From: Clostridia bacterium
GTDB lineage: Bacteria; Patescibacteriota; Microgenomatia; UM-FILTER-40-11
DNA: 58,689 bases
NCBI GenBank assembly: GCA_035529915.1
Contig: DATKVU010000025.1
Coordinates: 1 to 58,689, forward strand
Reading direction: 5' to 3'
Position numbers and translations under genes: made by a program
Part shown: piece after piece, positions 11,574 through 39,730 of the stretch
How the letters are laid out: every line of letters starts with the position of its first letter
Position numbering within the stretch: the stretch's first letter is position 1
Notes under the pieces: generated by a model
Told to the model about the DNA's origin: nothing
The model's database searches: none
The model's input: only the letters and a program-made list of their open reading frames with translations

Positions 11574-12407
11574 TTAGACCCAGTCTTTACTTAAATCAAC
11601 CTGGCCATCTTTCTCCATCTCCCAATATTTAGCATAAGCAGTAAAATGATGCAAACCTGAATAGAAGGCAAAGACAAAGCCGGGAAAACCGTCTTGAAAA
11701 CCACGGTGGCGAATAAAGAGGGAAAAAAAGGTTTTGACTGGTTGCCAAAGACCATAATTCAAGCAGCTCCAACCGCTCAAGCTCACCTTTTTCTCTTTTA
11801 GCTCTTGGGCCGTTAAAGAGGAATAACGATTATCTTTAGTCAAATAAACGGCAAAACTGGGAGTGGAAAGATGAATCAAAGGATTTTTGAGCCAGCCAAC
11901 TTTCCCCTCCGTTGCCATTTGCTCATGAACATTTTCACAAGGGAGACGAGCCTTCCCTTTTTTAAAGAAACGAATCACCGGGTCGGGATACTGACCCCCT
12001 TTTTCAATCCACTGCCCCAAAAACATCTTCTTTCGTTTAATCAAAAAAGCATTGGGCAACTGTGCCTGATCGGGATGGTCAACTATTCCCCTTATTTCCT
12101 CCGCCAATTCGGGGGTGATTATTTCGTCAGCGTCAAGCTGGAGAATCCACTCTCCCCGACACTCGTCAATTGCTTGCTGCTTATTAATATGGAAAATCGG
12201 CTTGTTAGTAGTGATAATTACCCTGGCACCCAGGCTTTGAGCAATTTTAACCGTTTCGTCGCTGGAAGAGCCGTCGACAACGGCTATTTCGTCAGCTATC
12301 CCCTTCACCCCTTTAAGGCATTGCTCAAGATTCTTTTCCTCGTTGAAGGTAGCCAACGCCACCGAGAGTTTAATTCTCGACAATTCTGAAGACTTCTTTC
12401 TGACCAT
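11574..12407 (-). CDS. family 2 glycosyltransferase, WaaE/LgtF-like subgroup
   Basis: 277 aa with LSVALATFNEEKNLEQCLKGV, EIAVVDGSSSDET, LQLDADE, GGQYPDPVIRFF and a C-terminal helical part FQDGFPGFVFAFYSGLHHFTAYAKYWE. ATG at 12407 overlaps the upstream GT-C 3' end by 38 nt. Confidence 0.8.
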   Translation of the reverse strand: MVRKKSSELSRIKLSVALATFNEEKNLEQCLKGVKGIADEIAVVDGSSSDETVKIAQSLGARVIITTNKPIFHINKQQAIDECRGEWILQLDADEIITPELAEEIRGIVDHPDQAQLPNAFLIKRKKMFLGQWIEKGGQYPDPVIRFFKKGKARLPCENVHEQMATEGKVGWLKNPLIHLSTPSFAVYLTKDNRYSSLTAQELKEKKVSLSGWSCLNYGLWQPVKTFFSLFIRHRGFQDGFPGFVFAFYSGLHHFTAYAKYWEMEKDGQVDLSKDWV

Positions 12408-14004
12408 CTTTGAAATATATCCTTTTCGCTATTTTAGCAGAATCAGGGACTTCCTCGGTAGTCCCTACTATCATTATCCCCGTGGCTTTTTGCAAATGGG
12501 ACCAATCAATCGGTCCGAAATAAAATTTATCGAAATGCTCAACCGTGGAAAAGCCATACTGGTCACGCAAAGAAAGCTTGGCTTCCCTCTGAAACTCTGC
12601 CGGCGGGTATTTTAAATAAAAGGCCAAAAGAATATAAGGTTGATCGTAGCGGTTAGTGATATAAATTTTCCCAAAATTCTCCTGATTCTCAACCAAGTAG
12701 TTCCCTAGCTGTTTAAAACCGTCCTCCCAAGCCGCCGGATAAAGTTGCGGATAACGGACATAATATTGATAAAGATAGAAAGCGAAGTTTCCCAGATAAG
12801 CCAAAATCACCAAGGCGACAGTAACGATAAGAGAAAGGCGGCTTTTTTCCATCCTTTTCTTCAAATTATCTATTCCGTAAGCAGTGACCATGGTTAAAGG
12901 AACCACTAAATTAAGAGCCCGAATTGCGTGAGGAGACTGAAAAGTTAAAGCGGAAGCAACCGGCGCCACCGCCAACCACCAAAAAAGAATCTGCCAATTT
13001 TTCGGCCGGCACTTTAATAAGAAATATAAACCTAAAATTAGCAAAGGAGCTTCAATTAAATACATTTGACCCATTCCCGGCACTCGGTTCCGCTGAATTT
13101 CGTCCCCTTCAGTAAACAGAAAAAAACTGCTGAAATGACGCAAATAATTGTCCAAAAATTGCCGTCCATACTCAAAATAGCGATTATGAACCAAGGTGGG
13201 AAAGAGGGCCGCCGGCTGGGAATGCTCGCCTCTTAATTCATTCACCCGCCAAAGAGGGCCTTGATCGGCCAAAAGACCGACTCCGGCAAAGCGAGAAGTC
13301 CCGGCTTGACCGGTCATGGAAAACAAAAGTAAACCGAAAATCAATCCTCCCGCGACAAAAGTGACGCCCAGCCAAACTCGATTCTCCCGAACGAAAATCT
13401 TCTTTCGATTCATTAATCCCAAACCCAAGACCAAAAGGGGGACCACTAACCGAGCACTATGGTAAGCAAACATCGCCGCCAGAAAAGAAACCACACTAAA
13501 AAGGAAAAAGTGGGGTCTTTTTATTGCCCGCAAAAACAAAAATACTCCTAAGGCCATAAAAAAAGTCGCCGCATTCGTTTCCCAACCGCCGCGGGAAAAG
13601 TGCAAATGCCAGGGAGAAATTGCCAAAAGCAAGGCCGTTAACCAAGCCCAACCGGCCGTCTTTTCCCCCAGCTCAGCTAATTCTTTAACCAAAAAATACC
13701 CGACCAAGACGGTTAAGACTCCCAAGACCGCTGACGGCAAGCGCACCGCCCATTCATTTAAGCCCAAAATTTTCACCCAAGGCAGCACCAGATAAAAATA
13801 AAGGCCTGGTTTCCAATCATTAAACGATTGAAAGTTTATCGGCCAAGAGTGACCGAACTCATCTTTCCCGGTCTGTAAAAGAGAATAAGCGTTATAACCA
13901 ATTGCCGCCTCATCCGCATTTAAACCAGTGGGAAACTCGGCCAATTTATAAACCCTCAAAAAGAGAGCCGAGAGGATAACGACGATCAGAGCGATTTTTT
14001 TCAT
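12370..14004 (-). CDS. PMT_2/ArnT-like GT-C glycosyltransferase, family 1 paralogue
   Basis: 544 aa multi-TM. Loop 1 GLNADEAAIGYNAYSLLQTGKDEFGHSWP, then LLAISPWHLHFSRGGWE and loop FLFTEGDEIQRNRVPGMGQMY. C-terminal soluble domain WEDGFKQLGNYL...YDQPYILLAFYLKYPP. TAATG junction at 14004. Confidence 0.8.
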   Translation of the reverse strand: MKKIALIVVILSALFLRVYKLAEFPTGLNADEAAIGYNAYSLLQTGKDEFGHSWPINFQSFNDWKPGLYFYLVLPWVKILGLNEWAVRLPSAVLGVLTVLVGYFLVKELAELGEKTAGWAWLTALLLAISPWHLHFSRGGWETNAATFFMALGVFLFLRAIKRPHFFLFSVVSFLAAMFAYHSARLVVPLLVLGLGLMNRKKIFVRENRVWLGVTFVAGGLIFGLLLFSMTGQAGTSRFAGVGLLADQGPLWRVNELRGEHSQPAALFPTLVHNRYFEYGRQFLDNYLRHFSSFFLFTEGDEIQRNRVPGMGQMYLIEAPLLILGLYFLLKCRPKNWQILFWWLAVAPVASALTFQSPHAIRALNLVVPLTMVTAYGIDNLKKRMEKSRLSLIVTVALVILAYLGNFAFYLYQYYVRYPQLYPAAWEDGFKQLGNYLVENQENFGKIYITNRYDQPYILLAFYLKYPPAEFQREAKLSLRDQYGFSTVEHFDKFYFGPIDWSHLQKATGIMIVGTTEEVPDSAKIAKRIYFKDGQKEVFRIVEN

Positions 14005-14804
14005 TAGCGGTGGTTAAAAATTAAATCAACAAACCGAATTAGGCAAAAACCATATCCCGACCATAAAAAGAGCTGAGTGGAAACTTTAGCCCAGAGTGGT
14101 TTTTTCCTTAAGGACCAAAATAATCTGTCAACCCCTTGGGCAACAAGAAAAACCAAAGGAATAACGAGGCCAAAAGAGGCCAAGGAAAGCGGCTTTTCAG
14201 GAAAAAAAATCGCCGGTAGCGGAGCAAGCAAAAGCCAATAAAGAATCAAGTTTTCAAATCGGTCTCTTTTTTTGCTGATTAAGTATCCCAACCCCCAAAG
14301 CAAAAAAACAATATCTAAATCGTACATTGCCCCCTGATAAGCCGCCGCTTTATTTAAACCAAACCAATCCCCGGCAAAAAAGAGGAATTGTCCGGAAAAA
14401 GGCGCTCCATAACGATCGGCAATCTCTGTCAGTGAATGAAAAGAGAGACTTTCTTTTAGAAATACCCCGCCAAAAATTATCCCGGTCAAAGCCACCGCCG
14501 TTTTTCTAACCTTTTTCTTTCCCTCAAAATGAAAGAAAAACCAAAGTCCTAAAGTAACGGCTAATAATAAACCGTCCCCTAAAATAAACTCTCGAGAAAC
14601 CAAAATATGCCAAGGGTTAATGGCCAAAAGCAAAGCGGACAATCGAGCGATTGACTCCGCGCGCTCAACTTGAGCTTCCCTGATTAAAAAATAGGTGGTC
14701 ACGACCGTCAAGGCTCCCAAAAACACTGCCGGAGTGGCCCCCGTTAAGGTAGGGAGGAAAATTCTTAAAATAAAAGCCAGGGTAAAAATTATTAAGCTTA
14801 TCAT
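14004..14804 (-). CDS. reduced family 1 paralogue (membrane core only, no DE loop, no C-terminal domain)
   Basis: 266 aa. Keeps LSALLLAINPWHILVSR, FLFFAGDWFG and LLLAPLPAIFF, which align by eye with the full-length neighbours. TM1 runs straight into TM2 without the about 60-aa loop 1. Confidence 0.65.
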   Translation of the reverse strand: MISLIIFTLAFILRIFLPTLTGATPAVFLGALTVVTTYFLIREAQVERAESIARLSALLLAINPWHILVSREFILGDGLLLAVTLGLWFFFHFEGKKKVRKTAVALTGIIFGGVFLKESLSFHSLTEIADRYGAPFSGQFLFFAGDWFGLNKAAAYQGAMYDLDIVFLLWGLGYLISKKRDRFENLILYWLLLAPLPAIFFPEKPLSLASFGLVIPLVFLVAQGVDRLFWSLRKKPLWAKVSTQLFLWSGYGFCLIRFVDLIFNHR

Positions 14805-16468
14805 TGCTCCAAGATTTCAAAGGCCGGCTTCCCGTCCAGAAAGTTAACCGCTTCTATTTTCTGCCAGCCCTTTGGATAATTCTCCGGACTCGTTAATAAA
14901 AGGCACTTGGCCCCCCGAGGGCAAGTCGCCAGATATTTAACTTCCCAATCATTCATAAAAACGAATTTATCAAACCCGTCAACCCAATACCAATTGGCAT
15001 GATAATCCCACTTCTTCCCTTGAGGATTTTGGTACTGTCGCGGGTCATATTTCAAATAAAAGAGTAAAAATTCATGCGGTTCTCCATAGCGCTTAGTGAG
15101 AATGATTTTGTCGTATCGGGCGGCATTTTTTTGGACAAAAGCGATTGCTTCCCGATAGCCATATTGCCAAGCCCAAGAATAAGTCGGCTGATAGATTCGC
15201 CAATAATCTTGCCACCAGCGGGAAAAACTTATCATTACTGCCAGCGAAAGTATGGCCATTAAAAGCTTCCCTTTAAAACGCGATTTCGGGCCAACTTCCG
15301 TCAAAATCTCTTTTAAGCCAAGAGCGGTGAGAATCATCGGCGCTGGTAAAACTAAAAGGCTTCTTAAAACATGAGGGGCGTCCCTGGTAATCGCTGACGG
15401 CAGAAAGCCGAAAAAAAACCAGATTCCAATTAATCTCTCCTGATCATCCTTCCGCCAAAACGCCCTTAAGATTCCTAAGAGCAAAAAGGGAGCGACAACC
15501 AAATATAAAAGTTCATGCTCGGGCTGAGAAAATTGATAATGACTGCCTCCTCTAAAAAAAAGGTACTTCGGCGACAGGTTGGCCAGATAATTTTTCACCG
15601 CGTAGGTAACAAAAAAAGTGGGGCGGTTATAAATAGCCCGAGCGACTCCTGGAGGTAATTTGGAAGCAGTCCTTTTTTCATTGATACGCATTATTGTTCC
15701 TTGGTCCAAGGGAGTAACTAAGTCAAATCGGGCTTTCCCGGTTTGATCAAAAAGCTGGCCGACAAAAGGAACTAAAAATATCAAAAATATCACTCCTGCT
15801 AAGGCCGATTGTTTCAGCCTTTTCTTTTTAAAAACCGCTGCCGCTGCCAAAAAGGCAAAAAGCGGGACTAAAATCCGAGCCGAATTATAAGCATACAGGG
15901 CCAATCCCCAAAAAAAGGCCACCCAGAGAAGGCCCCTTCCTTTCTCCCGCCATTGCAGGAAAAACCAAAATCCGGCCGCAAACAAAAGAACCGCTAAATT
16001 TGCCTCAAGAGCCACCCGAGAAACAAAGAGGCTCCAGGGAGAAACGGCGGTTAAGAGAGAGGCAAACAAAGCAAAACCTTCCTTCTGGCTGACTTTTTTA
16101 GTAATCAAATAAGTTAAGAAAACCAAAACGACTCCGGCGGAAGCGGAAATAAAACGGACAGAAAACGCTTTCAATCCAAACAAGGCAATCGGTAATATTG
16201 ATAAATAAATGTACGAAGGCAATTTATAGTCGCCGTAGGCCCGAAAAATTAGCGGGAGGCGACTGCCCCACTCATCGCGACCGGTTTTAAGAATTGAATA
16301 AGCGTTATAGCCGTGAGAAATTTCGTCCCAGTTCAAGGAAGGAGGATTATCCGCCAAACGGTAAAAACGCAAAAAAGCGGCTAAAAAAAGAATTACCAGC
16401 AAAATCAAACGGGGTTTCGAAAGCCAAGAAAAATTTCTTTCTAAGAATAAAATAATTTTTCCCATCAT
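14801..16468 (-). CDS. PMT_2/ArnT-like GT-C glycosyltransferase, family 1 paralogue
   Basis: 555 aa with SLNWDEISHGYNAYSILKTGRDEWGSRLP, LLTAVSPWSLFVSRVALE and YLFFRGGSHYQ. C-terminal WQYGYREAIAFV...YDKIILTKRYGEPHEFLLFYLKYDP. ATGA overlaps at both ends. Confidence 0.8.
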   Translation of the reverse strand: MMGKIILFLERNFSWLSKPRLILLVILFLAAFLRFYRLADNPPSLNWDEISHGYNAYSILKTGRDEWGSRLPLIFRAYGDYKLPSYIYLSILPIALFGLKAFSVRFISASAGVVLVFLTYLITKKVSQKEGFALFASLLTAVSPWSLFVSRVALEANLAVLLFAAGFWFFLQWREKGRGLLWVAFFWGLALYAYNSARILVPLFAFLAAAAVFKKKRLKQSALAGVIFLIFLVPFVGQLFDQTGKARFDLVTPLDQGTIMRINEKRTASKLPPGVARAIYNRPTFFVTYAVKNYLANLSPKYLFFRGGSHYQFSQPEHELLYLVVAPFLLLGILRAFWRKDDQERLIGIWFFFGFLPSAITRDAPHVLRSLLVLPAPMILTALGLKEILTEVGPKSRFKGKLLMAILSLAVMISFSRWWQDYWRIYQPTYSWAWQYGYREAIAFVQKNAARYDKIILTKRYGEPHEFLLFYLKYDPRQYQNPQGKKWDYHANWYWVDGFDKFVFMNDWEVKYLATCPRGAKCLLLTSPENYPKGWQKIEAVNFLDGKPAFEILEQ

Positions 16469-18123
16469 CGTTTCGCTCCCTTAGTCAGTAGATAAATATA
16501 GGGTTCATTTGAAAATGTTTCTTTTACCAATTTTAAAACTTTTATACCCGCCGGGGGAGATTCTTCCCAATTCCAATCTCCGGGAATTTCGTCTCTCTGA
16601 AAAGCAAGAAAAACCGTTTTTTCATCCAAATTTTGCTGCAGCCACTCTCCCTTATTTTCACTTGCTATCCCTCCCAAATAAACCGACCCCACTCTAAATC
16701 CGGCGAAACCGGGAAGAAGATTTTCTTTTCTGGCATCACCGGTATAATTCTGCCATAACCAACAAGGGTCTTTTTGAGTCCAAAAAAGATAGCGCAACAA
16801 TATCGGATCATGTTCATTATTGAGAACTACCCGCGGATATTCATCCTCATATCTAGCCAGCCAAGTTAAGGCTTCCTTATAACCGACACCCCAAAAACGG
16901 CTTTGTTCCTTTCCATAATGGACATCGTATTCATGGGACCATGAAGCGGTAAAAACTAAAGCCAGAACGAGAAAAAGAACCAGGGATTTAGCCGAACGGC
17001 AGAGAGAATCGACCCCATAAGCAATCAAAATCACCAGTGGAGGAATCATTAAAAAAAGCCGGGTGGCATGGTTGCCCCCATCAACTGTTAGAACCGACGA
17101 CAAGGGAGCCAAAAAAAGCCAAAGGAAAACCACTTTTTTTAGCCGCTCTTCCCTACTCCTAAAAAGCAAAAAGATCCCCGCCAGGAAAAAGGGCAAAAAT
17201 CCCCAGTAAATTTCCCCAAATCCCGGAACATTATGGCGCGGATTAGGATCACCATTAAGAAAAAGAAATTGAAAAGAAAAACTGGTTAGATAATTATTTA
17301 AAAAGCTTTTTCCCCAAGCCGTTAGCTTATTATGAAAAACCCGCTCAACTCCACCGACCCCGGTCGTCCGTTTAAAAACAATCGTGTCAATCACTTTGGG
17401 ATCGTTAAAAATATTGATTGACCGAAAACGAGTCGCCCCCTCCCCTCTAATCATTGTCCAAAACAAAGGCAGGCAAAAAACTACTAATAAAAATCCAGCA
17501 GTGGTCAGCTTTTTGTCTAGCCAACCGGCTTTCGGAAAAAGAAGCCAGCTAAGGCCTAAAATCAATAAAGGAACAAAAACGTTGGCGGTATTGTAAGTGT
17601 AGAAAGAAAGAGCAAAACTTATGGCTGCCAGGAACCACTTTTTTCCTAAAAAGGCGATTGTCCCCAAGAGAACTAAACTTAAAAGCAAGGTTGATTCAAA
17701 AGCGACCCGGGAATAATGAATATGCCAAGGAATTATCGCCCCGACAAAAGCGCTTAATAAAGCCAAGCGCTGATTTTGAGTCAGTTTTAGAACTAAAAGA
17801 TAAAAAAGAAAAACATTTAAGACTCCGAAAATTGCCGGCACCAGTCTAACTCCCCATTCATTCAAACCCAAAATCCCCACGGCCGGCGCCGTCAGATACA
17901 TAAGCAGGGGAGCGCGCCACTCATTCAGGGAATGGATATAAACTGGAAAACTTTGGCCTTGATAGTCACGGCCAGTTCGCCATAAGCTAAAGGCCTGGTA
18001 GCCGACATCCAATTCATCACCAAAAAGCTCCGGCGGCACCTGACTGAGGTTAAAGAGTCTTAAGAAAGTAGCCAAAACCAAAATGGCAATTAACAAAAGT
18101 TTGTCTTTCTCACCTTTAAGCAT
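16465..18123 (-). CDS. PMT_2/ArnT-like GT-C glycosyltransferase, family 1 paralogue
   Basis: 552 aa with ELFGDELDVGYQAFSLWRTGRDYQGQSFP, IIPWHIHYSRVAFE and FLFLNGDPNPRHNVPGFGEIY. C-terminal WGVGYKEALTWL... Confidence 0.8.
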   Translation of the reverse strand: MLKGEKDKLLLIAILVLATFLRLFNLSQVPPELFGDELDVGYQAFSLWRTGRDYQGQSFPVYIHSLNEWRAPLLMYLTAPAVGILGLNEWGVRLVPAIFGVLNVFLFYLLVLKLTQNQRLALLSAFVGAIIPWHIHYSRVAFESTLLLSLVLLGTIAFLGKKWFLAAISFALSFYTYNTANVFVPLLILGLSWLLFPKAGWLDKKLTTAGFLLVVFCLPLFWTMIRGEGATRFRSINIFNDPKVIDTIVFKRTTGVGGVERVFHNKLTAWGKSFLNNYLTSFSFQFLFLNGDPNPRHNVPGFGEIYWGFLPFFLAGIFLLFRSREERLKKVVFLWLFLAPLSSVLTVDGGNHATRLFLMIPPLVILIAYGVDSLCRSAKSLVLFLVLALVFTASWSHEYDVHYGKEQSRFWGVGYKEALTWLARYEDEYPRVVLNNEHDPILLRYLFWTQKDPCWLWQNYTGDARKENLLPGFAGFRVGSVYLGGIASENKGEWLQQNLDEKTVFLAFQRDEIPGDWNWEESPPAGIKVLKLVKETFSNEPYIYLLTKGAKR

Positions 18124-18136
18124 TCTTTTTGATTAT

Positions 18137-20152
18137 TTAAATTACTCGGTAGATTAAAGCTTCTTCGTTTTCAAAGACTTTTCTAATCCCGTTTTGTTTT
18201 TCCAAAAGAGGACTTTTCAGCTCATCTTTGCGAACGTAAATATAACTTATCTTCTTATCCTTTAAAAAGGCTCTTCCCAAAAGCAGGTTGGTTTGGTCAA
18301 AAAAACTTCTCATTTGTTTCAAGTCCTCTTCGGTTTTATAACCGGTAATCATCAGCTGTTCTTCGCCGGTTAGATAGGCATACCGATTGGAAAAAACGAA
18401 AATATAGGCCGTACTATACCAGGCAGAAATCGGCCAAGGTTGCTTAGGATATCGCCATTCGCCGTCCCCGACAAAAGGTTTACTTAAAACAACCTCTTCA
18501 GGGGTAGAATTATTCTTAAGCCAGCCTAAAGCCTCTTCTTCCGCCGGAGTAACTTTCGATAAGGGGCCTTTGCCCGGTCCATAAAAATCAAAAAAATTAC
18601 CGATCACCGTCGGAACAGCTAAAATTATTACCAAAGTTGAAATTGCCAGTCTAACTGACCGGCTCTTCAACTTTCCTAAAAGAGCCACCGTCGTTGCGGC
18701 TGCCAATATGCCTAAAAAATGAAGATAAATTTGAATAAACTGAATCAGGTTATAGATAATTCCCCTCTGCACAAAAAGAAGCACAAACCCCACCGAAAAC
18801 AAGAGAGAAGAGGCAATAAAGATATCAACACCATCTATTTTCTTAAGCCACCCCCTACCGACATTTTTGATCAATTCCCAAAAGCCAATAATCCTCATTC
18901 CCGAATTGCCAATAATAAAGATGGCGATCGCCTCTAGTTCTAACTGAACCACCCGCAGGAGGCTATGCCAGGAATTTTTCCAAAGATAATGCTGCCGCCT
19001 TAACTCCCAATCAACGTTGCCAAGTTTACTAACCATCATTGTTCTGGTAAACCAAAGTGGCTCAAAAATTAAAAACGAGCCGGCGGTTGGACTGATCAAC
19101 TTTAAAAGGCCAAAATTGCTCGCTGCTAGGAAAACCCCAGAGGCTAGGAGACCTATTTTTCTCTCGCGCCACCAAAGATACAAACCACTCATTCCCAAAG
19201 CAAAGACGGCCACTACTCCCGAAGAAACTTTTACTACCGCCAGTCCATAACCCAAAAACGCGATTAGATAAAGCCAGAAATTCTCTTTAGTTTTTATCCA
19301 AAGTTCGAGTACAAACAAGATGGTAGTTAATAAAATTATTCCTAAAGCATACGGTGGATTGCCTAAAATAGTATTACCCTGAGAAGCCCAAAAAGTGGTT
19401 TCTCCGCTTAAGGGAAACCGATGATTAAGAATCGAGACGATATAGCCAAAACTGCCGCAAGCATAAGTAAAGAAAACTGACCAATAACCAACTCTTTGAT
19501 TCCATCTTTTTTTGGCAAAACAAAAAACACTCAAACTAATCAAAAACGACAGTAAGATCGGGAAAAAGCGAAAATAAAGGTCTAAGGAACCTAAAAAGGG
19601 AAAAAGGCGATAGAATTCTCCCATAAAAATATTGCTCGCGTAGTGATAGTTCAAGAGCGGCTGATTGGCATATAAGGGATTATTGGGGGGGAAGTGCCTG
19701 GCGATCTCCTGCATTACCGCCACATGCCACAATCCATCATGGCCATGAGCACTCCAGAAATAATAACCTCCGGGGTACCGAAAACCACTGGGGAAATTTA
19801 TCATCCCCTGAACAAATATCCCTAAAATAATGAGCCCGATTAAAATTTTGTTTTTAAGCAAAGACAACAAAGGAGAGAGGATGCTTTTAAACGAACTTTT
19901 TCTTAAGAGAAGGAAGTCGATTCCCGCTATTAGCGGCAAAGACAAAAATCTTAGCTTTAAAACGCCCAGCAGAACTGCCGCAGAGGAAAATAGAACTATA
20001 CCTAAAACAAAAGAGAGAAGGCTTTCTGCTTCTGGCTCCAGCTCCCCCCCCCTCTTTCCCAAAAGAAACATTCCGGGAAGAAAGAGAACTAAAATGGCAA
20101 GGGGGGAAAAAAATAGCAATTTTATGATAGTGAAAGCTAACGCTTGGATCAT
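18137..20152 (-). CDS. large polytopic membrane protein, unassigned GHDGxWH family (putative GT-C)
   Basis: 671 aa. External-loop box SAHGHDGLWHVAVMQEIARHFPPNNP parallels GPNGHDGIWHLALINQLAK of 45289-47010. C-terminal soluble region ending ISYIYVRKDE...ALIYRVI parallels IAYLYLVKGQ...VKIFKIN. Confidence 0.55.
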   Translation of the reverse strand: MIQALAFTIIKLLFFSPLAILVLFLPGMFLLGKRGGELEPEAESLLSFVLGIVLFSSAAVLLGVLKLRFLSLPLIAGIDFLLLRKSSFKSILSPLLSLLKNKILIGLIILGIFVQGMINFPSGFRYPGGYYFWSAHGHDGLWHVAVMQEIARHFPPNNPLYANQPLLNYHYASNIFMGEFYRLFPFLGSLDLYFRFFPILLSFLISLSVFCFAKKRWNQRVGYWSVFFTYACGSFGYIVSILNHRFPLSGETTFWASQGNTILGNPPYALGIILLTTILFVLELWIKTKENFWLYLIAFLGYGLAVVKVSSGVVAVFALGMSGLYLWWRERKIGLLASGVFLAASNFGLLKLISPTAGSFLIFEPLWFTRTMMVSKLGNVDWELRRQHYLWKNSWHSLLRVVQLELEAIAIFIIGNSGMRIIGFWELIKNVGRGWLKKIDGVDIFIASSLLFSVGFVLLFVQRGIIYNLIQFIQIYLHFLGILAAATTVALLGKLKSRSVRLAISTLVIILAVPTVIGNFFDFYGPGKGPLSKVTPAEEEALGWLKNNSTPEEVVLSKPFVGDGEWRYPKQPWPISAWYSTAYIFVFSNRYAYLTGEEQLMITGYKTEEDLKQMRSFFDQTNLLLGRAFLKDKKISYIYVRKDELKSPLLEKQNGIRKVFENEEALIYRVI
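20044..20052. repeat. C9 homopolymer (G9 on the coding strand) at codons 34-36 of the 671-aa membrane protein
   Basis: Read directly: gctccccccc cct. Encodes K-R-G-G-E (AAG AGG GGG GGG GAG). Longest G/C run I found in the window. Confidence 0.9.
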
Positions 20153-20162
20153 CTCTCGGTTT

Positions 20163-21827
20163 TTACCAAATACTAGTTTTTACCAAATAAAACATTGGCA
20201 TCTTATTATATAACGATACCACTTTAACAATCTGGGAAGAAGGGATTTCTTGGGGCGAAAGCTGCCAAAAGCTGGCCACGAGAAGAGTATTCTTAAGATG
20301 TCTATCCTCCGGCCAATAAACATTGCGAAAGACAAAGTTTTCAAAGCCAAATTCTCCCCGGCCCAGGCGAGCTTTTTGAATAACCGCCGGCTCCACTTTA
20401 CCGTAGACTAAAAGGTAAGCAAAAGGAATTCCAGTAATATTTTTGGCCTCCACTCCAAAATCCGGATCAATAATAATTTGATCATAGTTATCCTTGTTCT
20501 GCCAAAGATATAAAGACACCTCTTTCATCCCATACATCCAATAATGAGAATAGTGAACCGGGCAATGGACATAATAAAGGTCGAGATAACCATAGATATT
20601 GCTCAGACCAAACATTATGATTGCCAGAGAAATGGCCATTTGGTAAACAGACCGAATCTTCGTTCCACGAAGCCATTGAATGAAATACCAAGCTCCCACT
20701 GCCACCAGAATCTGCGGTATCGGGACAAGAGTTAGACTTCTTGAAGTGTGCTGAGAATTATTGGCCAAAGAGGCTGAAAGTGGACCTAGAAGAGCCCAAA
20801 TGAAAACTAACCTTTTACTTCCTTTTTCAATTTTCATTTTGTTTACCAAGACAACTGCCCCCAAAACAAAGAAGGGCAATTCGATTAAATACATCAAGCC
20901 AACATCGGGAAACTTAGGGTGAGTAAAACTCATCCCCTTAAAAAAGAGGAAAGAAAAATCGCTATATTCCAAATAGCGCTTTATCCAAAAGGAAAATGCA
21001 TTAGTTGCCTTTCCGTTCAAAATCATCTCGACAAAACTGGGCTTCTCCCATTGAGAAATCTTCTCCCACCGTAAAGTCCTTAGCTCATAATCGTTAGTAA
21101 TAAAAACTGATTTTGGTCTTATTAGCCCCTTAGAGGAAAAAATCATGTGGACCATGGGCAACGAGAGAATAACTGCCACCATCAAGGCCATCAAGGCGTT
21201 CTTTTTACTAGTCCAAATCTCCTTCCTATATACTAAAAGGAGAGAAACCAGAAATACCGGGACAAATATTCTTTCAGAATGATAAGAATAAATTGAGAGA
21301 CAAAAAAATATCCCGGATAGCCACCAAAACTTACCTTTATTTTTCAGACTGCCGATAAACACCAAACAACCTAAGAGGAAAAAAAGTAGGGCAATTATTG
21401 CCTCGTGGGTCAGTCGAGAATATTGAATATGCCAAGGAGAAATTGCCAAGAGAAAAGCACCAATCAAGGCAATTCGCTTATTATTAAGAAGTAAATTAAC
21501 CAGGGAATAGACGACCAAAGGAGTCAAACTACCCAAAAGCGCAACCGTAAAACGAATACTAAACTCACTTAAACCAAGAAATTTGATTGCCGGGATCATT
21601 AAATAAACTAAGATCGGCGCTTTGTAATCACCGACTGACTTAAACGCGAGTGGCAAAAACTCTCCCCAATGATCCTTGGCGGTTTTCAAAATTGAATAGC
21701 TATCATAACCAATAATCACTTCGTCAATGCTGAGGGAAACCGGGTAAGAAGAAAGTTTCCAGAAACGCAAGAAAAAGGAAACCAGGAGGATAATTAAGAC
21801 CATCAAAACTGTCGTTCTTCTCTTCAT
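20163..21827 (-). CDS. PMT_2/ArnT-like GT-C glycosyltransferase, family 1 paralogue
   Basis: 554 aa with SLSIDEVIIGYDSYSILKTAKDHWGEFLP, LLAISPWHIQYSRLTHE and FLFFKGMSFTHPKFPDVGLMY. C-terminal WMYGMKEVSLYL... Confidence 0.8.
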   Translation of the reverse strand: MKRRTTVLMVLIILLVSFFLRFWKLSSYPVSLSIDEVIIGYDSYSILKTAKDHWGEFLPLAFKSVGDYKAPILVYLMIPAIKFLGLSEFSIRFTVALLGSLTPLVVYSLVNLLLNNKRIALIGAFLLAISPWHIQYSRLTHEAIIALLFFLLGCLVFIGSLKNKGKFWWLSGIFFCLSIYSYHSERIFVPVFLVSLLLVYRKEIWTSKKNALMALMVAVILSLPMVHMIFSSKGLIRPKSVFITNDYELRTLRWEKISQWEKPSFVEMILNGKATNAFSFWIKRYLEYSDFSFLFFKGMSFTHPKFPDVGLMYLIELPFFVLGAVVLVNKMKIEKGSKRLVFIWALLGPLSASLANNSQHTSRSLTLVPIPQILVAVGAWYFIQWLRGTKIRSVYQMAISLAIIMFGLSNIYGYLDLYYVHCPVHYSHYWMYGMKEVSLYLWQNKDNYDQIIIDPDFGVEAKNITGIPFAYLLVYGKVEPAVIQKARLGRGEFGFENFVFRNVYWPEDRHLKNTLLVASFWQLSPQEIPSSQIVKVVSLYNKMPMFYLVKTSIW

Positions 21828-23107
21828 TTTGACATCATTAAGGAAAAATAAAGTTTTTGATTAGGCAATAATTCTGAACGGCGAAAATCGTCAAAGATTT
21901 TAAAGTAGCTAATAAGAAGGTTTATTCCTAAGAAAAACAAGAAAACTTTCCACCAAAAGGGTTTTTTGCCCAACTGGACAATTCCCAAGGCAACATAAAA
22001 AGCAATCGGGAAAAGAGCCAAGACAAAGGCGTCCTGATTAAAAGCTGAAGCCAAAAGCGAAGAAGAAATTCCTCCCAAAAACAAAAGCCCGAGCCAGACA
22101 AAAGCTTTCTTTGGAGGCAAAAAATTAAATGACTTTAAAAGCCCCCAGACAAAGAAGGGCGCGAAGACCAATAACATTGGCCCGTTAGCAATTAAGGTAG
22201 AAAATCCCCCACTCTCCACTAAAGAAAATATCCTAGCTAAACTGTATTGCCCCCAAAAGTTAGCCAGCCAAAAAATAAAAAAATAAAGCTTATTAAAAAG
22301 AATTCTCCCCAGTAAAGGATAGCCAAAATTTTGTTCAATTCCCCGGGAAGCATTAATGGCATTGATAAAGCCGATATCGTTAAAAAAACCCGATGTTCTT
22401 TTCAAAACCAAAAAGTTGTTTGAACGCAGTAAGAAAAAAGTGGCTAGAAGAGTTAAGAAAACCAGCAAAAAGGAAAAAGACCTTAGGGGAAGCTTCTTTT
22501 TTTCTTGGAAAATCAAAAAAATGGCCAGTAACAAAAGAAAAAGAGATGGCAAAAATAAATAAAGACTAGAAAAAAGAGCTCCGGCAATCAGAGAAAAAAT
22601 TAGTAAAATTGACAACCACCCACCATTTCGGCGACGCCACACCAAGTAAAAAGCGGCTAGAAAAAGGGGTAAGCCTAAACCCGAGGGAGAAAAAAACCGA
22701 CCCAAGAAAACCAGCTGGGGGGTGAAGGCAAGAATCAAAAGAAAAATTTCCCCCAATCCCTTCCTTTCTTCCTTCTCTGCCCTAACCAGCCGATAAGTTA
22801 TCAATAAAGTAAGACAACTAAAGATCAGAGTTGATAGTCGACCCCAGTAAATAATTGACTGAGGGCCGGCAGTTCCCAAAAAATGAGGTAATCGAAAAAA
22901 CCAAGCTGAGAGCGGCAAAAAACAATCCCCCTCATTCTCACAAATAGTCACTGCCTTATCTGAAAGATGATTAAGAAATAAGGCTTCATCCTGGCTCAAA
23001 CCAAAGTAAGGATTAAACAAACCAACCGCCCGTAAACCAAAAGAAACCCCTAATAGTGCTCCCAGCCATATTTTTAATTTAGACGGTCTCTTCCCCCGGT
23101 TTTTCAT
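21824..23107 (-). CDS. divergent family 1-like membrane protein lacking the C-terminal soluble domain
   Basis: 427 aa multi-TM. Loop 1 FGLSQDEALFLNHLSD; later FSLVESGGFSTLIANGPMLLVFAPFFVWGLL aligns with the family 1 second-loop/helix box. ATGA overlap at 21824-21827 and a 1-nt TAATG junction at 23107. Confidence 0.6.
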   Translation of the reverse strand: MKNRGKRPSKLKIWLGALLGVSFGLRAVGLFNPYFGLSQDEALFLNHLSDKAVTICENEGDCFLPLSAWFFRLPHFLGTAGPQSIIYWGRLSTLIFSCLTLLITYRLVRAEKEERKGLGEIFLLILAFTPQLVFLGRFFSPSGLGLPLFLAAFYLVWRRRNGGWLSILLIFSLIAGALFSSLYLFLPSLFLLLLAIFLIFQEKKKLPLRSFSFLLVFLTLLATFFLLRSNNFLVLKRTSGFFNDIGFINAINASRGIEQNFGYPLLGRILFNKLYFFIFWLANFWGQYSLARIFSLVESGGFSTLIANGPMLLVFAPFFVWGLLKSFNFLPPKKAFVWLGLLFLGGISSSLLASAFNQDAFVLALFPIAFYVALGIVQLGKKPFWWKVFLFFLGINLLISYFKIFDDFRRSELLPNQKLYFSLMMSK

Positions 23108-28751: not shown

Positions 28752-28768
28752 AAAAAATAGTATACCCT

Positions 28769-35766: not shown

Positions 35767-37428
35767 TTATGGCGTCTCAAAGCTGCTTCCATAACCCAAT
35801 TGTTTTATCCCTCGATTGGTTATAAAAGCATTAAAAATAATCTTCCGGTCTGGCCCGATTATAGCAAATAATTCGGTGAGAGAGTGAATTTTTATTTGAG
35901 CCGGGGAGATACCGACCACACGAGCAACTAAGATATCTTTTTCAAGGTTATCTTTTCCCCAAACCAGTGGCCTGGCCTCAAAATCCCCCACTTTCGACTG
36001 GTTTTTCCAATCGCCCATCTGATAATATCTACTCAGATCAAAATTGAATTCTTCCTGGACCTTTGCGGGCGGATATTGATTAAAAAAAAGCATTTGGATA
36101 TAAGAAACTCCCACCGGATCATCAATAAGAACTTTTGCTCCAGGAAATTCTTTCAATTCTTCGGCTAATTCTTCATAACCGTAATTCCACTCGAAGTATC
36201 GCTCCTCGGGTAAGAGAAAGAAAATACTTCGCACCAAATAAGCAATTGAAAGTAGAAAAAATACTGATATTAAGGGAACGGCCGCTCTTTTGTTGCTAAT
36301 AACCAGGTATATTTTTTCTATTCCCAAAGAAATCAGAATGACCAAGGGAAAAATTAGCGGCAAGGCCCGCAAAGTAGAAAAAGGGTCACCGGTCAGAGCG
36401 GCCGGAACTGGGACCAAAAATAAAAAAGGAAGAATAATTTTCTTAGAATAATCACCCTCCTTTGCCAACAGCAAATAAAAGCCGAGAAAAAACGGAATCA
36501 CCATCCAGGAGTAAAAAACGCTCAATTCCGGTAAAGACCTTTGCGGGTCAGAATCAGGTTCAAAGAATAGATTGCGCGAAGAAAAATAGGCAGCATACAG
36601 GGACAATGGTTTTCTTAAAACGGAAAAAATCTGGGCAGGATTAGATTCAACTTTCGCGAAATCTTCCGCCTTTATGATTGACAAACTCTCTATGCGATTA
36701 TTACCGGCAGCGAACCGCAAAATAAAAAATTGCGGCAAGGAAACGATAAGGAAAAGAAAGAAAGACAAAAGAACAATTTTCGGCCGGATTTTGGCGTTTT
36801 GACTTTTCTTTTTAGCCAAAATTATTGAAAAAAGTAAGAAAAAAACGGGAGAAAGCAATTTCTCCACAATGTAGGTGTAAGTTGAGAGGCTGTAAATAAA
36901 GGCGGAGGCAAAAAGAAAAATCTTGCTTCCTTTTTCAAAAGCTTTTATCTGCATCAAAAAGGCAGTCAAGAAAAAGAATAAGGCCACATTGGCTTCGAAG
37001 GCGGCTCGGGAAAAAAAGATTGACCAGGGGGAAACGGCAAAAATAAAGGCGCTTAGTAAAGCAAGCCAAAATCTTTTTTCCGAAAAAATCGCCGTAACCA
37101 AAAAGAAAACTACCATCACGGTCAATGAACCGAAAAAGGCAGAAAAGAACCTGGTCGAAAAAACATTCAGCCCCCAAGTCCTGACTGATAAAACCGTCAG
37201 ATAAGTATAAACCGGCATTTTATAATCACCAAAAGAACGAAACATCAAGGGAAAGCTCTTTCCATACTCATCTTTTCCGGTGGTTAAAATTGAGTAAGCA
37301 TTGTAACCAAAAGCGGCCTCATCGCGAAAAACGCCTGTGGGAACGGAGGGAAGCCTGTAAAAACGTAAAAGTATCCCCAAAAGAAAAACAAAAGATAAAA
37401 AGAAGATTTCCTTACTCGATTTTTTCAT
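35767..37428 (-). CDS. PMT_2/ArnT-like GT-C glycosyltransferase, family 1 paralogue (subgroup b)
   Basis: 553 aa with GVFRDEAAFGYNAYSILTTGKDEYGKSFPLMFRSFGDYKMP, VSPWSIFFSRAAFEAN and NLFFEPDSDPQRSLPELSVFYSWMVIPFFLG. C-terminal WNYGYEELAEEL...SYIQMLFFNQYPP. Confidence 0.8.
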   Translation of the reverse strand: MKKSSKEIFFLSFVFLLGILLRFYRLPSVPTGVFRDEAAFGYNAYSILTTGKDEYGKSFPLMFRSFGDYKMPVYTYLTVLSVRTWGLNVFSTRFFSAFFGSLTVMVVFFLVTAIFSEKRFWLALLSAFIFAVSPWSIFFSRAAFEANVALFFFLTAFLMQIKAFEKGSKIFLFASAFIYSLSTYTYIVEKLLSPVFFLLFSIILAKKKSQNAKIRPKIVLLSFFLFLIVSLPQFFILRFAAGNNRIESLSIIKAEDFAKVESNPAQIFSVLRKPLSLYAAYFSSRNLFFEPDSDPQRSLPELSVFYSWMVIPFFLGFYLLLAKEGDYSKKIILPFLFLVPVPAALTGDPFSTLRALPLIFPLVILISLGIEKIYLVISNKRAAVPLISVFFLLSIAYLVRSIFFLLPEERYFEWNYGYEELAEELKEFPGAKVLIDDPVGVSYIQMLFFNQYPPAKVQEEFNFDLSRYYQMGDWKNQSKVGDFEARPLVWGKDNLEKDILVARVVGISPAQIKIHSLTELFAIIGPDRKIIFNAFITNRGIKQLGYGSSFETP

Positions 37429-38117
37429 TTATCCAGTTCGTCAGTTAGCGGAGACGGTTTTCTGCGAGTCGAAATGAAAAAAATCAAACATTCTTTTATA
37501 CCAAAATATATATTAATGACCAAAAACGGGAAGAAAAAAAACGAAAAAGTATCAATTGGTGAAAAGAAAGCTGCGATTAGTAATGAAGACAAAAAATAAA
37601 AAATGCTTAAGAGCTGTTTCCTTTTTAGTGAAAAATACAATCCTATCAAGAAAAGAGGCAACACCAACTCGGGAAACTTCTTAATTTCATCGACTCCCAA
37701 TCTCTCCCTGGGATGAGTGGCAAAAAAATAATAATTGATGTCTATGCCTTCAAATAAATTTTTTTCATAGTTGAAAACATATCGGTTCAATTTATTTTCA
37801 AAAAATCTGCCTAGGAGCGGATTTTGATAGTAAGATCTTCTCTGATTAACACTATAAATATCTAAATCGTTAAGATAAAAAATTGTTTTTGAACCGGGCT
37901 TTAGGAGAATGACCAGAAGTGGCAAAAAAAGTAGTAAGAATTTTGCTGGTCCTTTACGAGCATTAAAAAGTACTAGCAAGCAAGAAATGCCAATCATGAG
38001 CAAAAATTCCCAATATTTGTTTTTAGACCAGAAGCTCCAAATCCAATAGTTACCTAAAAGAGAAAATATAAAAATCAGTAAGGGAAGGCCAAAAGACTTG
38101 AATTGTTTAACTTTCAT
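37425..38117 (-). CDS. small family 1-derived membrane protein (second-loop region only)
   Basis: 230 aa. NYYFFATHPRERLGVDEIKKFPELVLPLFLIGLYFSLK aligns with the FLF-x-GD loop and following helix of the full-length paralogues. No DE loop and no soluble domain. ATGA overlaps on both sides. Confidence 0.55.
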   Translation of the reverse strand: MKVKQFKSFGLPLLIFIFSLLGNYWIWSFWSKNKYWEFLLMIGISCLLVLFNARKGPAKFLLLFLPLLVILLKPGSKTIFYLNDLDIYSVNQRRSYYQNPLLGRFFENKLNRYVFNYEKNLFEGIDINYYFFATHPRERLGVDEIKKFPELVLPLFLIGLYFSLKRKQLLSIFYFLSSLLIAAFFSPIDTFSFFFFPFLVINIYFGIKECLIFFISTRRKPSPLTDELDK

Positions 38118-39730
38118 TTTACTAATTGTAATTTCTTTCGGTCGTCCTCTCGTTTAAGACCAGGGTTAGTCTGATAGCCGTTAAAAATAGCTCTCCCATC
38201 TGAACCAAGTATAGCAAAAGCCTTGGTAAAAAAATGCTCTTTTACTTGGTCAGCCGATACGGCCAAAGGAGTCGCCACTATTAGCTTATTCTCATAGACA
38301 TCCTTTTCCCAGAAAATTCCCCTGACTTCAAAGTTTCTCCAAGAAACTTGCCTTTCCCATTCCCCCAAATCGTAATAACGACTAAGGTCGACTTTCGGTC
38401 TCTCTTGGTGTAAAAAGGCTGGGGGGTATTGTTCAAAAAAAAGCAGTTCAATATACGAACTTCCCAACGGGTCATCGATTAACACCGGCTCTCCTTTTTT
38501 TAACAATTGATCGGCCAACAATTTATAGCCATAACTCCAGGCCGAGAATCGCTCTTTGGGCAAAAGAATGAAGCTATTTCGATAAAGAGAGAAGAAAGAA
38601 ATGCCAATCGTTAAAAAAACTACCAAAATTTTCAACCAGGCCGATTTTAGTTTCTGCCAGCATTGTTCAATACCCAAAGTAATTATTAGGATTAGCGGAA
38701 AAATTAAAGGATAGGCCCTTAGGGCGGAAAAAGGATCGCCGGCAAAAGCGGCCGGCAGGGGGGAAAACAATAAAAATAAAACTATCACCCACTTTCGCCA
38801 ATCTCTCGGCTTCCTCAAAAAAGAGAAAAGCCCCAAAAAAAAGGGGATTACCATCCAAGAGTAGAAAACACTTAGTTGCGGATAAGAACGCTGTAAATCC
38901 GGGTCGGGGTCAAAGAAAAGATTGCGGGGTGAAAAGTAAGATGTGTATCGCGCCAAGAGAAATTTGATTTCCCCGGGTGAGCCCAGAAGGGCTTTTATTC
39001 TCGCCTGTCCGGCAGGAGAAGAAAAAAGCCAAAGCTGAGGTAAAAACAAAAGCAGAAAAACCAGCATCCCCGGCAGAAGTTTGACTAACCTATCCTTTCG
39101 GAAATCAATCCTCAACCACAGAAAAGAAAGAGAGAGAAAAATTATCGGAGACAGGAACCTTTCGGCGTGATAACTGTAAGCGGAAAGAAGGTAAGAAAAA
39201 GCGGCCAAAAAAAAGTAACGGCAGTCGTCCTTCTCGAAAGATAAGAGTTGAAGAAAGACGCCCAAAAGTAGCCAAAAAAGCGCCAGGTTGGCTTCAAAAG
39301 CGGCCCGGGACATAAAGACCGACCAGGGAAGAAAGGAAAAAACAAAGGCAGCCGTCAACCAAAATCCTTTATTTTTTTCGCGAAAAAGGAGTTTGACCAA
39401 TCCGAAAATCAAAAAGATACTTAAAGTCCCGCTCAAAGCGGAGAGGCATCTCACTGAAAAAGTATTCAATCCCAATAGTTTAATCGGCAAAACTGAAAGG
39501 TAAATATAAAGAGGCATCTTATAGTCGGCAAAGGAACGAAAGAAAAGAGGCAGTATTTTGCCATACTCGTCTCTCCCTGTTTCCAAAATGGAATAAGCAT
39601 TATAACCTAAAGCCGCTTCATCAACGTATAACCCCGGAGGATTAGAACCAAGATGGTAAAATCTCAAAAAGAAACCAAGAACAAAAATGAAAAAGAAAAT
39701 TATGAGGTTGAATTTGTTATTTTTTTTCAT
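38114..39730 (-). CDS. PMT_2/ArnT-like GT-C glycosyltransferase, family 1 paralogue (subgroup b)
   Basis: GLYVDEAALGYNAYSILETGRDEYGKILPLFFRSFADYKMP, LPWSVFMSRAAFEAN and NLFFDPDPDLQRSYPQLSVFYSWMVIPFFLG. C-terminal WSYGYKLLADQL...SYIELLFFEQYPP. The track start is 39778; ATG 39730 (MKKNNKFNLIIFFF) is preferred. Confidence 0.8.
   Translation of the reverse strand: MKKNNKFNLIIFFFIFVLGFFLRFYHLGSNPPGLYVDEAALGYNAYSILETGRDEYGKILPLFFRSFADYKMPLYIYLSVLPIKLLGLNTFSVRCLSALSGTLSIFLIFGLVKLLFREKNKGFWLTAAFVFSFLPWSVFMSRAAFEANLALFWLLLGVFLQLLSFEKDDCRYFFLAAFSYLLSAYSYHAERFLSPIIFLSLSFLWLRIDFRKDRLVKLLPGMLVFLLLFLPQLWLFSSPAGQARIKALLGSPGEIKFLLARYTSYFSPRNLFFDPDPDLQRSYPQLSVFYSWMVIPFFLGLFSFLRKPRDWRKWVIVLFLLFSPLPAAFAGDPFSALRAYPLIFPLILIITLGIEQCWQKLKSAWLKILVVFLTIGISFFSLYRNSFILLPKERFSAWSYGYKLLADQLLKKGEPVLIDDPLGSSYIELLFFEQYPPAFLHQERPKVDLSRYYDLGEWERQVSWRNFEVRGIFWEKDVYENKLIVATPLAVSADQVKEHFFTKAFAILGSDGRAIFNGYQTNPGLKREDDRKKLQLVK

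Follow-up and report, generated by a model that had tools for sequence, protein, structure and literature searches.

An ancient, ordered array of PMT/ArnT-like membrane glycosyltransferases in a Microgenomates glycan locus

Membrane glycosyltransferases of the PMT clan share a set of catalytic and donor-phosphate-binding residues, comprising an acidic pair in the first external loop (EL1), a lysine in the second helix of this loop (K85 in ArnT) and an arginine just before transmembrane helix (TM) 10 (R375 in PglB and R404 in STT3), which likewise binds the donor phosphate or is catalytic (PMC7801869). A precedent for pathways that use lipid-linked monosaccharides outside the cytoplasm is provided by three-component extracytoplasmic glycosylation systems (PMC11127046). 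Here we describe six PMT/ArnT-like paralogues encoded on contig DATKVU010000025.1 of assembly GCA_035529915.1, which is titled Clostridia bacterium and placed by GTDB within the Patescibacteriota (Microgenomatia); the whole contig, 58,689 nucleotides in length, is referred to as the window. This 58.7 kb consists of a near-continuous minus-strand gene cluster with a G+C content of around 0.41 and an even base composition throughout, encoding at least 17 GT-C-type membrane proteins, six of which come from a single family.

The original prediction, made from the letters of the window, was that one ancestral transferase had radiated in place to give six full-length copies with four shared sequence boxes. 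We instead favour, with a probability of around 0.75, the reading that the six are ancient and functionally distinct paralogues, part of an array inherited in a conserved order in which each orthogroup performs one non-redundant step.

Sequence, fold and predicted active site of the six paralogues

The six minus-strand open reading frames (ORFs) were verified at their coordinates and encode proteins of 544, 555, 552, 554, 553 and 554 or 538 amino acids (aa), the last depending on the start codon. They are listed here with the orthogroups, A to E, to which they were assigned.

12370..14004 (-), orthogroup A copy, 544 aa, with PMT_2 and PMT Pfam matches
14801..16468 (-), orthogroup B copy, 555 aa, with Pfam matches
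16465..18123 (-), orthogroup C copy, 552 aa, with Pfam matches
20163..21827 (-), orthogroup D copy, 554 aa, with the highest Pfam scores of the six; structure modelled
35767..37428 (-), orthogroup E copy 2, 553 aa, 47% identical to 38114-39778
38114..39730 (-), orthogroup E copy 1; the longest ORF begins at TTG 39778

The likely start of the last gene is the ATG at 39730, which agrees better than the TTG at 39778 with the N-termini of the other copies.

These genes are true paralogues of one family. In an all-against-all BLASTP comparison the proteins align over nearly their full length with 27-31% identity (E = 1e-37 to 1e-71), rising to 47% for 35767 against 38114 (E = 3e-148), and a six-way alignment recovers the four predicted boxes in order. 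Box 1, DE-x3-GY-x-[AS][YF]S[IL]-x2-T[GA][KR]D-x2-G, is present exactly in all six copies; the PW-x4-SR of box 2, the LF of box 3 and the W and G of box 4 are likewise invariant, while the leading S of box 2 and the GD/PD of box 3 are each found in four of six. Three shorter ORFs, at 14004-14804, 21824-23107 and 37425-38117, are also matched by a profile of the six, and account for the total of nine family members that had been counted.

At least one of two Pfam models, PMT_2 (PF13231) and PMT (PF02366), matches each of the six above its gathering score. Five copies exceed 26.1 bits with PMT_2, the 35767 protein scoring 19.1, and five exceed 22.7 bits with PMT, to which the 38114 protein has no match. 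NCBIfam returned solely sub-threshold matches for the six, to Agl23 and the LA_3751/LA_3752 family: Agl23 (TIGR03663) scored 31-50 bits over the N-terminal third only, short of its 126 bit cut-off. The archaeo_STT3 model reached 15.7 bits in one copy against a cut-off of 450, with no STT3 Pfam match, and the ArnT model was absent among the NCBIfam matches of the six copies.

The AlphaFold2 model of the 20163-21827 protein, built with 56 homologues, has a mean predicted local distance difference test score (pLDDT) of 94.5 and a predicted template modelling score (pTM) of 0.93. In it, a multi-pass membrane domain whose EL1 contains two juxtamembrane helices precedes a C-terminal α/β domain spanning approximately residues 432-554. 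TM1 is formed by residues 3-22 and the EL1 helices by residues 34-49 and 71-84, such that D35 and E36 begin the first EL1 helix. When this model was compared with the PDB using Foldseek, solely GT-C class-A enzymes were found at high rank, with a probability of 1.00. The best matches were to AglB (7e9s) and yeast STT3 (8agc), both with E = 1.6e-8, followed by ArnT (5ezm; 1.5e-7), PglB (6gxc; 1.5e-6) and Pmt4 (9i5k; 2.6e-5), then ALG9, EmbC and DPY19. Overall these spanned E = 1.6e-8 to 1e-3 with query TM-scores (TMq) of 0.46-0.56, the full-length matches having 10-18% identity and a TMq of about 0.5. Similarity detectable by sequence is sparser, as a HMMER search of the PDB found only ArnT (E = 5e-4, over TM2-TM6) and an STT3 (E = 0.016).

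In these HMMER alignments K69-P-P falls on the KPP of ArnT, and S137-R138...E142 on the 'SRSVAGSYDNE' of the second external loop (EL2) of STT3; equivalences to residues of solved enzymes consequently derive from weak hidden Markov model alignments together with topology. Across 313 full-length family members, D35 is conserved in 98%, E36 in 99%, D52 in 98% and R138 in 98% of sequences, and there are further near-invariant residues that the boxes had missed: R92 (99%), E142 (93%), R237 (96%) and R363 (100%). Because the counterparts of the PMT-clan active site are near-invariant in these 313 members, an outside-facing glycosyltransferase dependent on a polyprenyl-phosphate-sugar donor appears well supported. 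Pfam, the structural model and Foldseek agree with the proposal of PMT/ArnT-like GT-C enzymes carrying an acidic pair in EL1, and the six proteins are accordingly classed, from sequence and model, as predicted GT-C class-A glycosyltransferases of the Pfam PMT_2/PMT clan.

The C-terminal domain was also modelled alone, giving a small α/β fold with a pLDDT of 87.4. Its best Foldseek match in the PDB had E = 0.42, while no HMMER match in the PDB and no meaningful Pfam match was found for it at E≤10. A carbohydrate-binding fold, for which it had been suggested the domain should be searched, was rejected: neither a β-sandwich carbohydrate-binding module (CBM) nor a MIR trefoil is present, and no recognisable match was returned.

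Two alternatives concern the acceptor. The first is that these are strict PMT-type enzymes, each paralogue mannosylating serine or threonine residues of different secreted or surface proteins and none extending a glycan. PF02366 is above threshold in five of the six copies, the DE motif is found in all six, and Pmt4 is among the Foldseek matches; furthermore, the locus encodes a TMTC-like protein with eight TM segments and TPR repeats, and a membrane-anchored SurA_N-like chaperone. On the other hand, the MIR domain is absent, with no Pfam match in the six and no β-trefoil in the model of the 20163 protein, and oligosaccharyltransferase (OST) and ArnT structures match equally well or better. 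An operon with Wzx-like flippases, glycosyltransferases of families GT4 and GT2 and other GT-Cs is also typical of glycan assembly, and a fixed series of orthogroups, each with one copy, is more suggestive of consecutive steps. We therefore regard a strict PMT role as unlikely.

The second is that the family represents a minimal OST acting on peptide acceptors, with box 4 homologous to the WWDYG motif of STT3, AglB and PglB. Box 4 (W-x-Y-G) opens the soluble domain immediately behind the last TM helix and appears as FWDYG or WWQYG in relatives of the window copies, resembling the OST motif; AglB and STT3 are the top full-length Foldseek matches, and the EL2 segment aligns to that of STT3, as above. 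However, none of the searches with the isolated C-terminal domain (Foldseek, HMMER against the PDB, Pfam) recovered an OST. For a profile comparison, the Campylobacter lari PglB sequence was rebuilt from its HMMER alignment to 5ogl_A, this approximate query scoring 886 bits; hhalign of the family profile against it gave a probability of 2.5% and left the C-terminus unaligned. Moreover, the aspartate of WWDYG is not conserved, with M, E, Q, G, N and S found at this position in the window copies, and the PglB motif is preceded by a helix and a strand rather than directly by a TM helix. Homology of box 4 to WWDYG is unsupported by these four approaches, and an OST-like function is very improbable.

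Age and inheritance of the array

A profile of the six proteins, searched against 1.84 billion proteins, found 6,557 family representatives (50%-identity clusters) at E≤1e-30, and at least 590 encoding stretches in species-representative genomes match the box 1 pattern. The named carriers are almost all Microgenomates, including Shapiro-, Woese-, Gottesman-, Davies-, Levy-, Curtiss-, Collier- and Chisholmbacteria. The nearest named relatives of the 20163 protein are from Candidatus Shapirobacteria and other Patescibacteria, the window itself being assigned to a Shapirobacteria-like bacterium, with metagenomic relatives reaching 67% identity; in databases, its relatives are named 'glycosyltransferase family 39 protein' (NCBI) or 'ArnT-like' (JGI).

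For comparison of gene order, 79 other loci (labelled L plus a number), each of at most 21 kb (±10 kb), were selected for scoring highest with a D-type profile (alignment A2). Among loci chosen in this way the median number of full-length copies is 4, with three or more in 61 and five or more in 29 of the 79; 221 of 233 neighbouring copies are on the same strand, and 151 of 233 are separated by 20 nt or less. Tandem arrays of 3-7 copies are the norm for the family, which is arrayed in nearly all of the loci covered. Many of the source metagenome-assembled genomes (MAGs) are titled 'uncultured Gammaproteobacteria' or 'Pseudomonadales' (from binchicken; L003, L005, L008, L009, L013 and others) and have the same orthogroups in the same order as Microgenomates; such titles look like placeholders or errors.

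A neighbour-joining tree was constructed from a trimmed MAFFT alignment of the 313 full-length members, with 100 bootstraps. The 12370 and 14801 proteins each belong to a clade with 21 members, one from each of 21 loci, both with a bootstrap of 100. The 16465 protein groups with 11 sequences from 11 loci (bootstrap 93), within a clade of 23 sequences from 22 loci (86), and the 20163 protein with 3 sequences from 3 loci (87), within a clade of 25 sequences from 22 loci (63). None of the clades of the A, B, C and D copies holds another window copy. By contrast, the 35767 and 38114 proteins are sisters (bootstrap 98) and reciprocal best matches. The orthogroups span Shapiro-, Woese-, Davies- and Collierbacteria, and the best orthologues outside the window are 49% identical for 12370, 55% for 14801 (in L067), 41% for 16465 (in L002) and 57% for 20163; outside orthologues of the A-D copies are consequently 41-57% identical, against around 30% between window paralogues.

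The order of genes is conserved along with their sequences. With letters again denoting orthogroups and x a slot between B and A, three array archetypes were found among the loci: C-H-B-x-A, J/D-B-L-I and K-F-G, the order C-H-B-x-A recurring in approximately 15 loci. Along the direction of transcription, the window has E, E ... D-[671 aa]-C-B-[266 aa]-A. L081 is syntenic with the window, with 61% identity for D, 57% for the 671 aa protein, 52% for B, 52% for A and 58% for the downstream GT2.

Between window copies, identity at four-fold degenerate sites is 0.27-0.41 where 0.27 is expected, indistinguishable from random for all 15 pairs, the E pair included. DNA similarity between copies is negligible; DNA repeats or gene conversion between them were considered and rejected, since blastn gave short, weak matches only.

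On account of the orthogroups, the synteny and the saturated sites, the duplications predate the split of the major Microgenomates lineages, and the array, itself ancient, was already assembled when the window inherited it. Among the window copies, lineage-specific splitting is confined to 35767/38114 and, at 47% identity, it too is old. Turnover in the lineage of the window is limited to this duplication of E, to a missing orthogroup H and to an x slot occupied by a shortened gene.

These results bear on two further alternatives. The first is the originally predicted recent radiation in situ, in which one transferase was duplicated repeatedly in this genome and diverged rapidly, especially in the soluble domain. 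The copies are indeed in tandem on the same strand, 35767 and 38114 are sisters, and there has been the turnover just described. However, the closer relatives of A-D outside the window, their one-copy-per-locus clades, the gene order conserved across many loci and the random four-fold sites, even in the E pair, make such a burst highly unlikely. What survives of the original prediction is the single ancestral family and its origin by tandem duplication, with which the arrangement agrees; lineage-specific duplication is restricted to the E pair, and the alignment and tree that it had called for reveal ancient orthogroups rather than a local burst.

The second is that the copies were acquired separately by horizontal transfer from different donors, their adjacency reflecting the clustering of glycan genes. 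Glycan loci are hot spots of gene exchange, and the composition of arrays varies by lineage in the form of the three archetypes. Against this, many loci belonging to several Microgenomates lineages repeat the same orthogroups in an identical order, the neighbours in L081 are syntenic at a similar divergence (52-61%), named homologues are almost all from Microgenomates or other Patescibacteria, and the base composition of the window is uniform; separate acquisition is accordingly highly unlikely. Finally, that the boxes are artefacts of multi-pass membrane protein composition rather than homology, for which no supporting point was found, is ruled out for practical purposes by full-length BLASTP matches with E = 1e-37 to 1e-148, polar and charged residues near-invariant in 313 sequences and a confident common fold.

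Excluding the E-E pair, the window copies are 20% identical in the C-terminal domain and 23% in the external loop formed by residues 231-290, against 32% in the membrane core, in line with the earlier observation that the soluble domain is the most diverged. Because synonymous sites are saturated in all 15 pairs, amino acid identity within and between orthogroups was used in place of dN/dS, the ratio of non-synonymous to synonymous substitution rates. Within and between orthogroups, respectively, identity is 0.39 and 0.25 for the C-terminal domain, 0.37 and 0.21 for the loop, and 0.42 and 0.32 for the membrane core. Conservation of the loop and C-terminal domain within orthogroups, alongside divergence between them, fits fixed and distinct specificities. 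Of the idea that diverged external parts set different specificities, the pattern of conservation is thus borne out, while the specificity itself is deduced from it.

Shortened relatives, candidate donor supply and locus content

Four further membrane proteins are interspersed with, or immediately adjoin, the full-length copies.

14004..14804 (-), mini-paralogue of 266 aa, with a profile match to positions 97-397 only
18137..20152 (-), multi-TM protein of 671 aa within the array, with a GHDGLWH loop motif and no Pfam or NCBIfam match
21824..23107 (-), shorter family relative of 427 aa with around 10 TM segments and a profile match to positions 93-385
37425..38117 (-), small protein of 230 aa with five TM segments and no Pfam match, immediately upstream of an E-type copy

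The 14004-14804 protein keeps box 2 (as NPW..SRE) and box 3 (as FLFFAGD) and lacks the EL1/DE loop, the invariant arginine and the soluble domain. Its best match, in two pieces, is the full-length 'x-slot' gene of L067. The x slot of L081 holds a 212 aa ORF with the same layout, 26% identical to 14004-14804 where the flanking genes are approximately 52% identical; a recent pseudogene was rejected as the straightforward explanation, given this open ORF of the same stripped layout in the matching slot. The mini-paralogue could be a decaying remnant that has been kept open, or a non-catalytic subunit.

The 21824-23107 protein is a distant relative of the family that has DE after TM1 and lacks the soluble domain. 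Homologues lie directly upstream of D-type genes in L002 (9336-10004), L003 (13-1065), L007 (8865-10004), L057 (9061-9984) and L081 (4032-5084), that of L081 being 39% identical over the full length. Similarly, same-size homologues of 37425-38117 are found in L005 (7226-7900), L015 (5257-5934), L019 (11690-12307), L036 (11675-12511), L058 (3576-4208) and L080 (1707-2543), such that a homologue of this type is immediately upstream of the E-type copy in all six of the other loci with orthogroup E. The two genes constitute a conserved module. The 18137-20152 protein has an orthologue at the matching position in L081 (57% identical) and, within the window, a paralogue at 45289-47010 (-), with 30% identity and a GHDG[LI]WH loop and C-terminal soluble part in common; this paralogue likewise has no Pfam or NCBIfam match. 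The 671 aa protein may be another unclassified membrane glycosyltransferase or polymerase.

Neighbouring genes of the array share 1-4 nt, and sites resembling promoters or terminators are no more frequent within it than the shuffled expectation. Internal promoters or terminators splitting the array were rejected on this basis, and the array is predicted to be co-transcribed.

The GT-C-type set of the window comprises the six copies, the 21824, 23107 and 52717 genes, one GT87, one PIG-V-like, two YfhO, two PTPS_related and a '[DE][EQ]GRD' trio (42910, 54974 and 56500), an exceptional density of such genes. Alongside these are approximately 14 GT2 genes, two GT4 genes and two Wzx-like (Polysacc_synt) transporters. 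The features that bear on donor supply, sugar modification and possible protein substrates are the following.

42026..42913 (-), GT2 with two C-terminal TM helices, aligning in full length to ArnC, PgfS and AglJ
11574..12407 (-), GT2 directly downstream of the orthogroup A copy, with a 58% identical orthologue at the matching position in L081
230-910 (-) and 41440-42024 (-), two S-adenosylmethionine (SAM) methyltransferases within the glycan locus
2848-4317 (-), B12-binding radical SAM enzyme within the glycan locus
4380-6221 (+), around eight TM segments followed by TPR repeats, one of two large plus-strand genes
28065-28781 (-), flanked by a YfhO gene and a PTPS_related GT-C gene and encoding a protein with one TM segment and a chaperone domain like that of the SurA N-terminus
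48553-50106 (+), 517 aa protein with around nine TM helices and 'DERD' after TM1, no Pfam or NCBIfam match

The 42026-42913 protein scores 199 bits with ArnC, 145 with PgfS and 100 with AglJ, all below equivalog cut-offs. Because of its full-length alignment to these models and its two C-terminal TM segments, it is a candidate polyprenyl-phosphate sugar synthase of the ArnC/GtrB/PgfS/AglJ-like type. Smaller GT2s resembling it are encoded at 50284-50991, 54220-54981 and 7269-8069. Pairs of a GT2 gene beside a GT-C gene recur (39717>38114, 44369>42910, 54220>52717, 58023>56500 and 12370>11574), and three paralogous GT2s each adjoin a GT-C gene (11574-12407, 39717-40499 and 44369-45250). No Pfam match to GtrA, SMR or MATE was found in the window, which has only the two Wzx-like transporters and several unannotated membrane proteins.

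The B12-binding radical SAM enzyme and SAM methyltransferases suggest methylated or otherwise modified sugars, while the SurA_N-like chaperone may point to a protein substrate or to help with folding. The 48553-50106 protein may be another unclassified GT-C. The architecture of the 4380-6221 protein is that of a TMTC-type O-mannosyltransferase, with no PMT_2 match. Other old paralogue sets are present in the window: YfhO at 28769 and 31153 (37% identity), PTPS_related at 26278 and 50988 (28%), the GT2 trios and the '[DE][EQ]GRD' PMT_2 trio.

Proposed role and comparison with known systems

We propose that the family expanded by tandem duplication deep within the Microgenomates, after which the array has been inherited in order, the window carrying D, C, B, A, two E copies and three shortened relatives. 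Each enzyme would reside in the cytoplasmic membrane with D35/E36, D52, K69, E142, R138 and R363 forming the active site on its outer face. The GT2 synthases of the locus would supply a polyprenyl-phosphate-sugar, from which each enzyme would pass one sugar to an acceptor outside the cell. The loop at 231-290 and the C-terminal α/β domain would decide the acceptor or linkage for each orthogroup, and one envelope glycan or glycoconjugate may be built or decorated by the array, together with other GT-Cs of the locus, in a set of non-redundant steps. The family, its fold and conserved residues, the age of the duplications, the gene order and the conservation by domain are matters of observation; the donor type, outside-facing catalysis, one step per orthogroup and nature of the acceptor are what we infer.

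Several points weigh against this reading. Statements on function, donor sugar, acceptor and linkage included, are predictions from homology and genomic context for a biochemically uncharacterised family. In the Foldseek, HMMER and Pfam searches the C-terminal domain resembles no domain of known function, and its role in specificity is suggested by conservation alone. A small flippase of the GtrA/SMR type is not recognised in the window, where the two Wzx-like proteins are the only such transporters. The tree was made by neighbour-joining rather than maximum likelihood, and support for orthogroup D is moderate in both its 25-member clade and its inner 3-member clade. Furthermore, the counts of copies per locus are conditional on the choice of loci by the D-type profile, and many source MAGs carry placeholder taxon labels.

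A bolder extension, which we hold only tentatively, is that the array (C-H-B-x-A with D and E) constitutes a Microgenomates-specific extracytoplasmic assembly line, adding sugars singly from polyprenyl-phosphate donors to a defined envelope glycopolymer, with one linkage per orthogroup in the manner of mycobacterial arabinan. The 14004, 21824 and 37425 proteins might then be non-catalytic or accessory partners of specific full-length enzymes, and the C-terminal domain a new acceptor-binding module.

Genomes of the Candidate Phyla Radiation (CPR) are around 1 Mb in size, complete Microgenomates among the matches being 0.8-0.9 Mb, yet here a 58 kb operon-like locus is devoted to envelope glycosylation. 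CPR bacteria are episymbiotic, a lifestyle in which the cell surface is regarded as pivotal, and for this reason the glycan made by the locus is a plausible determinant of host attachment. In the library searched for literature on CPR, Patescibacteria and Microgenomates, no paper on the family or on its arrays was found. What is new is a large uncharacterised family whose array organisation is conserved and whose C-terminal domain had gone unrecognised; the fold, motifs and likely chemistry are those already known for the PMT/ArnT/OST superfamily, and neither a new kind of enzyme nor a new type of system is represented. Single-copy orthogroups in a fixed order replace 'many glycosyltransferases' with a testable model of one enzyme per step, and offer a rational scheme for naming and comparison across the Microgenomates.

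ArnT, the undecaprenyl-phosphate-L-Ara4N:lipid A transferase (GT83; 5EZM and 5F15), is similar in being approximately 550 aa long and in joining a GT-C class-A membrane domain to a soluble C-terminal domain that faces outwards. Of matches in the PDB it is the stronger of the two solved proteins detectable by sequence, with the EL1 acidic residue and the lysine of KPP aligning. It differs in that identity is 13% and the TM-score around 0.5, with a match to 5EZM of about 160 residues (E = 5e-4) and no equivalog-level similarity; furthermore, arnT usually occurs once, within the arn operon, in contrast to the multi-paralogue array here. Lipid A synthesis is, to our knowledge, not known from the host lineage, and lipid A pathway genes are not among the annotated genes of the window, no search aimed at lipid A having been made.

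The PMT/POMT enzymes (GT39; Pmt1-Pmt2 6P25 and Pmt4 9I5K) and bacterial and TMTC members of the clan share the Pfam matches and the DE pair after TM1. By analogy they may also share the logic of a polyprenyl- or dolichyl-phosphate monosaccharide donor, and they too form multi-paralogue families whose members divide specificities among themselves (Pmt1/2/4 and TMTC1-4). However, the six proteins have neither the MIR β-trefoil nor a TPR fusion, PMTs lack the C-terminal α/β domain, and the paralogues here are physically arrayed in one operon. The OSTs AglB, STT3 and PglB are the best full-length structural matches (E ~1e-8, TMq 0.52-0.56), with the EL2 acidic residue, the arginine before a late TM helix and the W-x-Y-G after the last TM helix in common; by contrast, the C-terminal domain of this family is far smaller, at around 125 aa, and unrelated in all tests, and the sequon-reading WWD residues are not retained.

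The closest functional analogy is with the mycobacterial Emb/Aft/PimE sets and the GtrA/GtrB/GtrC systems, in which several GT-Cs each add a single sugar from a polyprenyl-phosphate donor on the outside of the membrane. In Emb, AftD and GT136, extra C-terminal domains aid acceptor binding. Both belong to other GT-C subfamilies, and no CBM-like β-sandwich is formed by the C-terminal domain of the present family. As in such systems (PMC11127046), candidate GT2 donor synthase genes are nearby; a flippase of the GtrA/SMR type was not recognised in the window. Unlike either, this locus type has 4-7 ancient paralogues of a single family in a conserved order. The proteins fail as ArnT proper, as eukaryote-type PMTs, as OSTs and as Agl23; by analogy, they probably work most like monosaccharide transferases of the ArnT/PMT type, in a set that resembles the Emb/Aft or ALG series.

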